DNA of 49,877 nucleotides from Bacteroidia bacterium (GTDB taxonomy: Bacteria; Bacteroidota; Bacteroidia; 2-12-FULL-35-15): positions 1 through 49,877 of the forward strand of contig JBBSPS010000002.1 in the NCBI GenBank assembly GCA_038258655.1, read 5' to 3'. Shown here one piece after another: positions 1,602 to 10,545 of this stretch. The stretch's first letter is position 1. Every line of letters starts with the position of its first letter. The translations under genes and the position numbers were made by a program. The notes beneath the pieces are model-generated. The model was not told the origin of the DNA. It saw nothing but the letters and a program-made list of their open reading frames with translations, and did not search any database.

Positions 1602-1645
1602 GGTGTCCTCCTTTTTTTTAATGGTTAATATTATTTTATTTTATT

Positions 1646-1670: not shown

Positions 1671-1841
1671 GCGAAAAAAAGTGACAAACTGACAAGCAAG
1701 AAGTAGTATAAATAAATTCGAAAGTGAAATTTTTGCAGAATGTGTTGTAAAAATGACATGATTTTTTATTTCGATTATATCTAAGCTGTTAAGTAGGCTA
1801 ATTTAACTCAGAAATCACTTAGATGGCTTCTTTTAGGAGAT

Positions 1842-2038
1842 GACCGTACAAGTCCAAAATCCCAGCAAGTCCCCTTGTATCTTCATGGAGCCGTTCATAT
1901 TTGGTCTGGAAGGTGGGTACTTAACCGGAAAACCCCTGATAAAACCTTATTTATCAGGGGTTTTTGGTTCGATAAAGCAGCTCCGAAATACAAAACAGTT
2001 TATTTTCAAGTAGTTATAAGTTCGAGTTTGGAAGCTGA
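1842..2038 (+). repeat. intergenic repeat copy A (5' module + hairpin + 3' module)
   Basis: Aligns over its whole length with 2742-2938. The stretch 1921-1977 is identical to 2821-2877. Confidence 0.85.
1933..1965. terminator. bidirectional hairpin terminator inside repeat A
   Basis: CCCCTGATAA (1933-1942) pairs with TTATCAGGGG (1951-1960), followed by TTTTT. An A-rich run precedes it, so it can serve the minus strand too. Confidence 0.7.
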
Positions 2039-2044
2039 ACCAAT

Positions 2045-2527
2045 TTATTTCGGTTTCGCAATTTCTTCTTCTTTTTTCTTTTTATCTAAATCATCCTGTT
2101 TTTTAGCAGCGTCTTTTGCGTCCTCTTTTTTTATGTCTTCTTTCTTATTTTCTAATTTTTTTTCAGCTTTTTTCTTTTCGCTTTCTTTTTCCTGAACTTT
2201 TTCATTAGCTTTTCTGGAATCTTCAGCCTTATCGTCAGTTTTATTTTGTGATTTCCTTAACTCATCCGTTTTATCATCCGTTTTACTTTGGGCTTTTCTT
2301 TGTTTTTCTGCTGTATCATCTGCTTTTTTCTGAGCTTTCTTTACTTCTTCATTCTTATTGTCAATTTTTTTTTCAGCCTTTTCAATTTCCTTGTTTCTTT
2401 GCTCAATTTTTTTTGCGTCCTCTATCTTAGCTTTGGCCGAATCACTTGCTGTTTGTGCAATACATTTGGTTGTTGAAATAAGTGAACATATTGCAACAAA
2501 TAACCCTATTTTTTTAATTGATTTCAT
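2045..2527 (-). CDS. secreted K/E/D-rich low-complexity (hydrophilin/LEA-like) protein
   Basis: 160 aa. Signal peptide MKSIKKIGLFVAICSLISTTKCIAQ, then about 135 aa almost entirely K/E/D/A/Q with KTDDK-type repeats. Confidence 0.6.
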   Translation of the reverse strand: MKSIKKIGLFVAICSLISTTKCIAQTASDSAKAKIEDAKKIEQRNKEIEKAEKKIDNKNEEVKKAQKKADDTAEKQRKAQSKTDDKTDELRKSQNKTDDKAEDSRKANEKVQEKESEKKKAEKKLENKKEDIKKEDAKDAAKKQDDLDKKKKEEEIAKPK

Positions 2528-2741
2528 AAAATTCGTTTTAATGCCGCAAATACATTTTTGCTAGCACTCAAAGGTACGATTTATACCATGGATATTGTTG
2601 CAAATTGTTTTCAATTAATTCATCTATCCCAGTTTTTTATTTCTTTTTTTTTAAACAGGAATTAAGTGATAGACATTGATTAGGCCAAAATTTGTTTGTG
2701 TATTTTTATAAAGAAATAAATTTAAGCCTCCTTCAAGAGAT

Positions 2742-2938
2742 AACCATACAGTTCCCAAATCCGAGCCATATCCCTAGTATCTTCAAGGATCTCGTTCATA
2801 TTTGGTCCGGAAGGGGGTACTTAACCGGAAAACCCCTGATAAAACCTTATTTATCAGGGGTTTTTGGTTCGATAAAGTAGTTTCGAAATGCAAAAAGCGT
2901 TTATTTTCAAGGAGTTATAAGTTCGAGTCTGAAAAGCC
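2742..2938 (+). repeat. intergenic repeat copy B (5' module + hairpin + 3' module)
   Basis: Same architecture as copy A. Its 5' module is near-identical to copy C. Confidence 0.85.
2833..2865. terminator. bidirectional hairpin terminator inside repeat B
   Basis: Identical CCCCTGATAA/TTATCAGGGG hairpin plus TTTTT. It lies downstream of the giant sensor gene read on the minus strand. Confidence 0.7.
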
Positions 2939-8344: not shown

Positions 8345-8504
8345 CGCTTTAAATATGAAGTGTTTGGTGAATGTACACCCTTATAATGGATAAAGCACTG
8401 ACACATATCAGTATTTGTACTTATCGCAATGATAAAAGGTTAATTAATGAAGAATTTAATACAGAAATAATCGTTTATGGCTCTATTCCAGTTTTTTCAA
8501 CAGC

Positions 8505-8584
8505 GACCGTAGAAGTCCCAAATGCGAGCCATATCCCTTGTATCTTTAAGGATCTCGTTCATATTTGGGTGGAAGGGGGTACTT
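8505..8584 (+). repeat. intergenic repeat copy C (5' module only)
   Basis: gaccgtagaagtcccaaatgcgagccatatccc...catatttgggtggaagggggtactt aligns with 2742-2822 and 1842-1922. Confidence 0.8.
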
Positions 8585-8604
8585 GGGCGCAAAAGGGCTC
8601 CTTT

Positions 8605-8654
8605 GGTAACAAAAGGTCACTAACTGATTGTTAGTGACCTTTTGTTACCTTTAA
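8605..8654. terminator. 20-bp perfect palindromic hairpin (bidirectional terminator)
   Basis: GGTAACAAAAGGTCACTAAC, loop tgatt, GTTAGTGACCTTTTGTTACC, followed by TTTAATTT. Confidence 0.65.
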
Positions 8655-8817
8655 TTTCCGATTTTTTTTGCTTCATTTTTTGATAGACTTCGTAATCTAA
8701 TTCAGCTATTTTGTAAAGGAAATCTCTAATTTGAGAAACCTCTACATCGGTATAAACCGATCCATCTTTTTGTAAGATGGTTCTGCATTTTTCTAATTTT
8801 ATTTTTTCTCTTTCCAT
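8620..8817 (-). CDS. small hypothetical protein
   Basis: 65-aa charged helical ORF. Its last codons lie inside the palindromic hairpin. No known motif. Confidence 0.35.
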   Translation of the reverse strand: MEREKIKLEKCRTILQKDGSVYTDVEVSQIRDFLYKIAELDYEVYQKMKQKKSEIKGNKRSLTIS

Positions 8818-10432: not shown

Positions 10433-10545
10433 ACCTGATAAAGCCTTATTTATCAGGGGTTTTTGGTTAGATAATGTTGCTTCGAAATACAAGACAGTTT
10501 TTTTTCAATTAGTTATGCGTTCGAGTTCGAAAGGCGCTTTGAAAA
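10433..10545 (+). repeat. intergenic repeat copy D (hairpin + 3' module only)
   Basis: cctgataaagccttatttatcaggggtttttggttagataa...cgaaatacaagacag...agttatgcgttcgagttcgaaa aligns with 1935-2035 and 2835-2935. Confidence 0.8.
10434..10464. terminator. bidirectional hairpin terminator inside repeat D
   Basis: CCTGATAA/TTATCAGG stem plus GGTTTTT. It sits between the convergent genes ending at 10428 (+) and 10569 (-). Confidence 0.65.

Follow-up and report, generated by a model that had tools for sequence, protein, structure and literature searches.

We analysed a 49,877-nucleotide (nt) stretch of DNA from a Bacteroidia bacterium (contig JBBSPS010000002.1, forward or plus strand), hereafter called the window, and focused on a repeat of about 80 nt that it carries three times. 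Judging from the way in which related copies have diverged, the core of this repeat is very probably a translated gene for a peptide of about 25 residues, encoded on the minus strand. The fullest explanation that we can offer, to which we give slightly better than even chances, is that this small open reading frame (ORF) is paired with a cis-antisense RNA read through it from the opposite strand.

A first-pass annotation of the window, made from the sequence alone, had described the repeat as a conserved non-coding module with two close copies and one diverged copy that differ by single-base indels. Alignment and a repeat finder (family D3) recovered all three copies, at 1842-1922 (copy A), 2742-2822 (copy B) and 8505-8584 (copy C). 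Compared without gaps with copy B as the reference, copy C agrees at 84% and copy A at 62% of positions, and the indels are visible in the alignment (GGAGC-CG versus GGATCTCG, and GGAAGGTGGG versus GGAAGG-GGG). A core pattern matching copies B and C had 0 chance matches expected from shuffles, a shorter pattern recovered all three copies, and a profile search, in which copy A scored weakest, found no further copy within the 49.9-kb window. Homologous copies in many other Bacteroidota genomes confirmed that this is a conserved repeat family. The annotation had also concluded that the copies share no reading frame and that the plus-strand ORFs overlapping them are artefacts. This was right for the plus strand, on which the frames are not conserved, but not for the minus strand, where an ATG-initiated ORF of about 25 codons is conserved; it is intact in copies B and C, where it begins MNEILEDTRDMARIW and encodes 25 and 21 amino acids. 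The small ORFs and their leaders are as follows.

2722-2799, minus strand: small ORF of copy B, ATG at 2799, 25 codons (MNEILEDTRDMARIWELYGYLLKEA), TAA at 2722-2724 (six-frame translation).
2800-2820, minus strand: leader of copy B, 21 nt, GTACCCCCTTCCGGACCAAAT, immediately 5' of the ATG.
8497-8562, minus strand: small ORF of copy C, ATG at 8562, 21 codons (MNEILKDTRDMARIWDFYGRC), TGA at 8497-8499 (six-frame translation).
8563-8582, minus strand: leader of copy C, GTACCCCCTTCCACCCAAAT, 1 base shorter.
1833-1898, minus strand: decayed small ORF of copy A (alignment and six-frame translation).
1899-1920, minus strand: leader of copy A, GTACCCACCTTCCAGACCAAAT, 1 base longer.

Relatives of the module were collected in two scans. 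A degenerate DNA pattern run on 185,579 species-representative genomes returned 38 loci with 42 copies, all from Bacteroidota assemblies; taxon names are the titles of metagenome-assembled genomes, and these include Sphingobacteriaceae, Arcticibacter, Chitinophaga, Chryseobacterium and Flavobacteriales, placing carriers by record title in at least three orders (Sphingobacteriales, Chitinophagales and Flavobacteriales). A second scan of metagenome contigs, with a pattern anchored only in codons 12-19 (the 3' half of the ORF), returned 55 loci. Nearly all of the 38 genome loci contain an ATG-initiated ORF of 21-40 codons, few being frameshifted or truncated, and across both sources the ORF is maintained in most of about 80 distinct homologous copies. 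The peptide consensus is MNE(I/L)LEDTRD(F/L/M)ARIWDLYGHLLKEA, and the stretch MNEILEDTRDMAR belongs to this peptide. Directly 5' of the ATG lies a conserved 21-nt leader with the consensus GTACCCCCTTCCAGACCAAAT. In the true matches of the metagenome scan the ATG, codons 2-11 and the leader were retained, none of which the pattern had constrained.

The substitutions among these copies follow the codons of the minus-strand ORF. In the part of the ORF outside the search pattern, column entropy is 0.42, 0.19 and 0.91 bits at codon positions 1, 2 and 3. Among codons departing from the consensus in 65 ungapped copies, 61% are synonymous where 20% would be expected. The other five frames give 1-15% synonymous changes, or 47% in the opposite frame matched at the wobble position, in which there is a stop. 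Coding on the plus strand was rejected, as the sole open frame there would place the variation in the first position of its codons, and that stop interrupts the wobble-matched frame. The most diverged copies are also informative. A profile search of fetched DNA found that locus L082 (1056-981) reads LNELLEDTRDMARIWDLYGHLVKDRT up to a stop from a TTG start and retains LNELLEDTRDMARIWDLYGHLVKD, with many synonymous swaps (CGG for AGG, ATA for ATT, GCC for GCT) and an unrelated leader. Locus L060 keeps the ORF with a GTG start, again behind an unrelated leader, and L087 and L090 have intact ORFs behind different leaders. Since such copies preserve the peptide rather than the nucleotides, and since synonymous changes are in excess, the repeat core is in all likelihood a translated gene. 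Repeats annotated as having no shared frame therefore need to be checked on both strands.

Some copies appear to have lost the gene. By its sequence, copy A is a frameshifted pseudogene, in which the loss of 1 nt after codon 2 puts the ORF out of frame, so that the ATG yields the unrelated peptide MNGSMKIQGDLLGFWTCTVIS before a stop, and the homologous frame, without a start codon, reads ERLHEDTRGLAGILDLYGHLLKEAI up to its stop (..EDTR..LYGHLLKEA), with the invariant W15 and R13 gone. Pseudogene-like copies were also found in L056 (stop at codon 3), L068 (ATA) and L089 (indel).

The peptide is nearly absent from protein collections. It had no significant match in Pfam, NCBIfam, PADLOC, PHROGs or the PDB sequences, and a profile built from 27 peptides returned only 10 entries among 5.8 billion predicted proteins, all unnamed and lacking Pfam domains, most of them extended spuriously at the N terminus. 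An exhaustive hidden Markov model search of 1.84 billion representatives added only ORFs that read through into the small ORF, and WD40 proteins; the large WD40-repeat proteins, which also came up as PDB matches, were rejected as homologues, as they share a short ..ARIWDL..G.. by chance. AlphaFold2 modelled one continuous helix with a mean predicted local distance difference test score of 81, rising to 84-90 over the 20 conserved residues. The sequence is hydrophilic (grand average of hydropathy -0.48), amphipathic (hydrophobic moment 0.49) and acidic (net charge -3), and the peptide is thus predicted to be a single soluble, acidic, amphipathic helix. Neither of two patterns matched IMG/VR viral contigs and no match was found in PLSDB plasmids, on which grounds a phage or plasmid origin was rejected. 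No prior description of the module was found in the literature searched, and its novelty is judged from databases only.

We then considered RNA structure. The first-pass annotation had drawn the same nested helices in every copy. In an 87-column alignment of 64 distinct copies, 0 of the 14 pairs has changes on both sides and no measure rises above shuffles; two variable pairs of the proposed helices are unpaired in 51 and 40 of the 64 sequences, and RNAalifold returned 17 pairs, 0 of them compensatory, with a covariation term of +0.09. A comparison with Rfam, including the Flavo-1 motif named in the annotation for this comparison, gave 0 matches at the gathering score across the window, and up to an E-value of 10 only sub-threshold chance matches. 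Among these, rli38 (37 bits, cut-off 49) and His_leader (24 bits) fell in the hairpin and tail region and were rejected as sub-threshold. ARAGORN found no tRNA or tmRNA in the window, and a tRNA origin of the module was rejected, as alignment to tRNA-Leu scored 33 globally where shuffles averaged 36, and its 3' part gave p = 0.19.

One stem is predicted at the start of the ORF, in which CCAAAU (-6 to -1) and the start-codon region pair with codons 12-15 (CCAAAU/AUUUGG). Synonymous third positions inside this stem (AAC, xTC, CTT, GCT, ATT) are almost invariant while those outside vary freely, which is a hint of RNA-level constraint in the sequence. Read from either strand, the stem has practically the same stability (-16.2 versus -16.1 kcal/mol) and so does not settle which strand is concerned. 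These results bear on a purely non-coding interpretation, according to which the module would be a plus-strand small RNA of about 85 nt plus a terminator hairpin that acts by base-pairing, the ORF being untranslated. Such an RNA would leave unexplained the codon periodicity, the 61% synonymous share, the preserved start and stop codons, the swaps from ATG to TTG or GTG and the diverged copies that keep the peptide, and it finds no covariation, no Rfam family and folding no different from that of shuffles. It draws support from the polarity of the hairpins and from promoter-like sites on the plus strand, both described below, and from the place of the module right after a co-directional gene, as for small RNAs derived from 3' untranslated regions (UTRs). 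Overall we consider it quite unlikely.

The genomic environment of the small ORF is strongly biased on one side. Of the 57 non-redundant copies whose neighbouring gene could be called, 50 have a convergent gene on the 3' side of the small ORF; the distance between the two stop codons has a median of about 45 nt and a minimum of 2-3 nt. The orientation of the gene on the 5' side is random (19 to 23). The convergent neighbours are unrelated to one another: they include beta-lactamase, DPP IV/S9 peptidase, LigB dioxygenase, cation efflux, NmrA and glyoxalase genes, as well as histidine kinases, SpoIIE-TPR, ORF6N, response regulator, CPBP protease, SRPBCC and SnoaL genes. There are 17 loci with two or three copies, which lie on the same strand in 17 of 17, typically one after each successive gene.

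This bias is a difficulty for a stand-alone small protein gene, for which opposite-strand transcription would be incidental and the site just free intergenic space beside terminators. That interpretation accommodates the coding evidence, and it agrees with the fact that a recognisable opposite-strand promoter is present in a minority of copies. It does not account for convergence in 50 of 57 copies, for gaps down to 2-3 nt, or for the lack of a terminator between the small ORF and its neighbour; the hairpin stands on the 5' side, and a promoter belonging to the small gene itself was not found. We regard it as unlikely, though it has the most weight among the rivals, ahead of the non-coding plus-strand RNA, a passive or selfish repeat and, last, a stress leader.

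The last of these was the competing interpretation of the first-pass annotation, namely that on the minus strand the modules form a shared stress promoter, operator or 5' leader. All three copies in the window indeed lie 150-230 nt upstream of co-directional genes, for hsp20, a lysine- and glutamate-rich (K/E-rich) protein and a large CheB/CheR hybrid kinase. These copies, however, are 3 of the 7 non-convergent exceptions among the 57, and copy A, the one before hsp20, is decayed. A shared stress leader is unsupported because the neighbours elsewhere are convergent and unrelated and because hsp20 has its own promoter-like site, TTTG-N21-TTATTTTG at 1663-1656, between module A and the hsp20 start; we consider this reading very improbable. 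A leader peptide or upstream-ORF attenuator was likewise rejected, since in 50 of 57 copies the gene that follows is convergent, and the families to which these genes belong are unrelated.

On the opposite strand, the hairpin and T-run that the annotation had placed directly after each copy are present, and a scan for Bacteroidetes-type promoters recovered the promoter-like pair that it had noted beside copy B. The features concerned are listed here.

1933-1965, no strand assigned: terminator-like hairpin adjoining copy A, 11 bp, CCCCTGATAAA/TTTATCAGGGG, with TTTTT on the plus and TTTTCC on the minus strand (inverted repeat I2).
2833-2865, no strand assigned: hairpin adjoining copy B, the same as at copy A, with T-run.
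8605-8649, no strand assigned: hairpin at copy C, 20 bp, scored as a plus-strand terminator.
2695-2724, plus strand: promoter-like site TTTG-N18-TAAATTTA, -7 box at 2717-2724 (consensus match).

In copy C an extension of about 22 nt (8583-8604), conserved in a subfamily, separates the leader from the hairpin. Among the relatives a hairpin nearly always stands directly 5' of the leader; its sequence varies, its arms co-vary between subfamilies, and the hairpin family of copies A and B recurs beside copies in many other genomes. A strict terminator rule (a stem plus at least 5 T in 8) was applied to 75 copies: 40 have a terminator on the opposite strand, corresponding to the plus strand of the window, 16 have one on the peptide strand, and 12 on both. 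Promoters were scanned as TTG or TTTG, a spacer of 17-23 nt and TAnnTTTG with at most 1 mismatch, so that promoter and terminator calls alike are consensus matches; the Bacteroidetes consensus was reportedly described by Bayley and colleagues in 2000 and Chen and colleagues in 2007. At a distance of 70-100 nt from the ATG, shortly after the stop of the small ORF, the opposite strand is enriched in promoter-like sites, among them a perfect TACTTTTG box within a flank that is conserved across contexts and reads GCAAAAGTACAAAAAA on the peptide strand.

Three further observations concern this region. The antisense of codons 1-9 forms a near-consensus promoter, TTG-N19-CATATTTG, whose -7 box is the reverse complement of CAAATATG; the box lies at 1896-1903 and 8560-8567 (plus strand), is found at the same place in 52 of 61 related copies and faces the hairpin. 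The likeness may be due to chance in the conserved start region, or the site may be a genuine outward promoter; in locus L038 a gene begins about 65 nt downstream of it. A 65-amino acid ORF (8620-8817, minus strand) runs into the 20-bp hairpin of copy C, and both this ORF and the hairpin are also conserved upstream of the small ORF in locus L043. Finally, GTTAAGT beside one hairpin family resembles an integron core site; the other hairpin families have no GTTAAGT, and an attC-like reading was rejected.

Taken with the coding evidence, this arrangement suggests how a small-ORF/antisense pair could work. Genes of about 25 codons on the minus strand, each behind its 21-nt leader abutting a terminator-type hairpin, would face a plus-strand RNA of one of two origins. 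In copy B and a subfamily of relatives it would start from a short promoter just past the stop codon; from the site at 2695-2724, the RNA would be antisense to the entire small ORF and end at the hairpin at 2833-2865, giving about 135 nt. In most genomes it would be the 3' untranslated end of the convergent neighbour, since a neighbouring stop codon within about 45 nt leaves no room for a promoter. Either transcript would extend to the hairpin and cover the entire ORF with its start codon and leader, and the antisense, together with the possible start-sequestering stem, would silence the peptide until antisense transcription falls. The conservation, the coding signature, the biased context and the polarity of the hairpins are observed; that either strand is transcribed, that antisense RNA controls the peptide and that the peptide has any activity, we infer from sequence features. 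A plus-strand transcript through the module is probable on these grounds; gating of the peptide by antisense, or behaviour like that of a type I toxin-antitoxin system, is somewhat less than an even bet, although antisense control is the mechanism that we favour.

Several points weigh against the pairing. The hydrophilic, negatively charged peptide is unlike classical type I toxins. No strict terminator was found on either strand in 31 of 75 copies, and a promoter-like site on the opposite strand is present in only about one copy in four. For the small ORF itself no promoter was found, which is the chief gap in the model: no minus-strand Bacteroidetes-type site lies 5' of any copy in the window, and conservation begins only 21 nt before the ATG, right after the hairpin. 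Single copies fold no better than shuffles on either strand (z-scores of minimum free energy from -0.40 to +0.54), and the start-region stem, with its equal stability on the two strands, has no covariation in the 64 sequences. Moreover, both collection scans needed exact degenerate patterns, which biases the sample to conserved copies, and the sequence counts are not phylogenetically independent. The very small, protein-conserved ORF expected of a type I system (under about 60 codons) is present, with 21-40 codons; and the layout is like that of fully overlapped type I pairs such as Ibs/Sib. The peptide is not hydrophobic, as toxins of the classical families are, and therefore we do not file the module as a type I toxin-antitoxin system.

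The 5' end of the module is also a site where mobile elements join. Several ORFs that read through into the small ORF turned out to be the C-terminal parts of large serine recombinases. The best example is a recombinase in locus L049 (7557-9272, with an entry span also to 9275), which contains Resolvase, Recombinase and Zn_ribbon_recom domains and continues in frame across its own hairpin (KKADSSYFNYLSAS) and the leader, translated as VPPSRPN, into the small ORF. Among 1,778 homologues of the recombinase, 40 were inspected: they are common up to ..S-x-S-V-P (DNA ..GTACC) and then diverge, so that the recombinase acquires different C-terminal tails at different integration sites. Three of the 40 carry the small-ORF peptide as their tail and three another conserved tail, and most of the inspected tails are translated reverse complements of tRNA genes (GAGLEPAR.., GAGFEPTTFGL, RRRLELPRLATYAPQAYLYTIPTPG). 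The third recurrent tail after GTACC, seen in P0098, P0119 and P0132, reads YGLNLSNFIEDFNRIRKLKSFMELGQL and variants, which suggests another conserved non-tRNA integration target.

Of particular relevance is recombinase P0092 (locus L095, 4001-5716), which is 92% identical to the L049 enzyme and is joined through the same hairpin-GTACC to a tRNA-Leu(gag) gene at 5585-5667 of L095; the cargo of this element includes the Kiwa defence genes KwaA and KwaB. As the same hairpin-GTACC is joined to either tRNA-Leu or the module, the hairpin would travel with the element and the module would be the host-side target. The leader/hairpin junction at GTAC thus reads as an attachment site used by large serine recombinase elements, and an integration junction there explains the sharp boundary of homology at GTAC. 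Recombinase genes or remnants lie directly 5' of 5 of the 80 copies (L049, L023, L008, L013 and, as a decayed fragment, L002), and none lies directly 5' of the copies in the window. To these elements the plus-strand 3' end of the module would accordingly look like that of a small RNA gene, a point that lends modest support to a plus-strand transcript. The parallel with a recombinase family that usually uses tRNA 3' ends is also a point for the non-coding RNA discussed above. A broader proposal, in which a Bacteroidota-wide, hitherto unrecognised antisense module, built like a type I toxin-antitoxin pair but with a soluble, acidic, helical peptide, is silenced by the mRNA 3' end of a convergent neighbour or by a dedicated small RNA and offers its leader end as a tRNA-equivalent landing site for serine-recombinase islands carrying defence genes (Kiwa once), is tentative, and we hold it to be rather doubtful.

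The same junctions raise the question of a selfish or passive repeat, either a miniature mobile element or debris of attachment sites, whose similarity would stem from recent spread. The sharp GTAC boundary with unrelated 5' flanks, the hairpin families recurring across genomes, the co-oriented clusters and the recombinase genes or remnants beside 5 of 80 copies would all be expected of it. The peptide, however, is under purifying selection in diverged copies, and the junctions put the module on the host side. Neither terminal inverted repeats nor target duplications were found, the former having been sought around the copies in the window, and the context is not random. Copy number is low, with three copies in the window, 1-3 per related locus and two strict matches in a complete 3.7-Mb chromosome, and there were no IMG/VR or PLSDB matches. 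A repeat of this kind is therefore improbable, and the miniature inverted-repeat transposable element that the first-pass annotation had named as a refuting outcome is rejected in view of the low copy number, the lack of terminal inverted repeats and the protein-level selection.

A second repeat, which we call module 2, is found next to the small-ORF module. Copies A and B share about 110 nt more past the module, made up of the hairpin, the T-run and a tail of about 70 nt (repeat family D1). Module 2 consists of the same hairpin, CCCCTGATAAA..TTTATCAGGGG, and a block of about 70-90 nt containing TTTATCGAACC, TTGAAAATAAAC and CTCGAAC. The repeat finder placed it as follows.

1961-2034: module 2 block, hairpin at 1933-1960.
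2861-2934: module 2 block, hairpin at 2833-2860.
10434-10533: module 2 block, hairpin at 10434-10463.

At 10434-10533 module 2 stands without the small-ORF module, once in the window, and it adjoins the small ORF in at least 11 foreign loci. Its far end (CTTTCCAGACTCGAAC) is similar to the leader of the small ORF and also to a tRNA T-arm read as its reverse complement. As a structured RNA it was rejected: when the block of about 100 nt was tested, only the terminator hairpin was predicted. Two of the neighbouring genes in the window also deserve mention. A strong Shine-Dalgarno-like AGGAGG lies at 1607-1612 (minus strand), after an A-run and 6 nt before the hsp20 start at 1601, which is unusual because Bacteroidota genes mostly lack such sites. 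The K/E-rich protein (160 amino acids, 2045-2527, minus strand) carries a signal-like segment at its N terminus and has a body that is highly charged and of low complexity; it has no Pfam match, and its gene contains internal DNA repeats (repeat finder families D2 and D6).

If the peptide is made, it represents a conserved family of about 25 residues that gene callers have missed (10 unnamed entries in 5.8 billion proteins) and a tractable example for Bacteroidota, a phylum in which little is known of regulatory small proteins or of type I-like systems. Its antisense placement between the stop codon of an unrelated gene and a terminator would be an unusual way of coupling a small protein to the transcription or termination of a neighbour. 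The module also identifies a non-tRNA integration site for mobile islands. In this last respect it resembles tRNA 3' ends, as its leader end is joined to serine recombinases through hairpin-GTACC, with the element supplying a replacement hairpin; unlike tRNA genes, it has no ARAGORN or Rfam tRNA match, and only 5 of 80 copies are occupied.

To our knowledge, no type I system is known in Bacteroidota. The closest parallels come from Ibs/Sib and Ldr/Rdl of E. coli, type I systems that form the 'QUAD' and 'LDR' intergenic repeats. Like the module, these appeared first as a multi-copy intergenic repeat, and one strand holds an ORF of about 20-35 codons that had escaped annotation; there, an opposite-strand small RNA with its own promoter and terminator runs over the ORF, and the copies are clustered and some decayed. 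They encode a hydrophobic membrane peptide, whereas the module peptide is predicted to be acidic, soluble and helical, and its antisense would come mostly from the 3' end of a neighbouring gene. Other familiar systems share single traits. As in SgrS/SgrT, RNAIII/delta-haemolysin and SR1/SR1P, a short conserved ORF comes with nucleotides constrained beyond coding (here the leader and the synonymous sites of the stem), but in those systems RNA and peptide are read from the same strand, while the candidate products of the module lie on opposite strands. On its plus strand, the module resembles the 3'UTR-derived small RNAs CpxQ, DapZ and SroC in lying between a stop codon and an intrinsic terminator, sometimes with an internal promoter. 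Each of these is tied to one parent gene, whereas the module follows dozens of unrelated genes and, in all probability, codes on the other strand.

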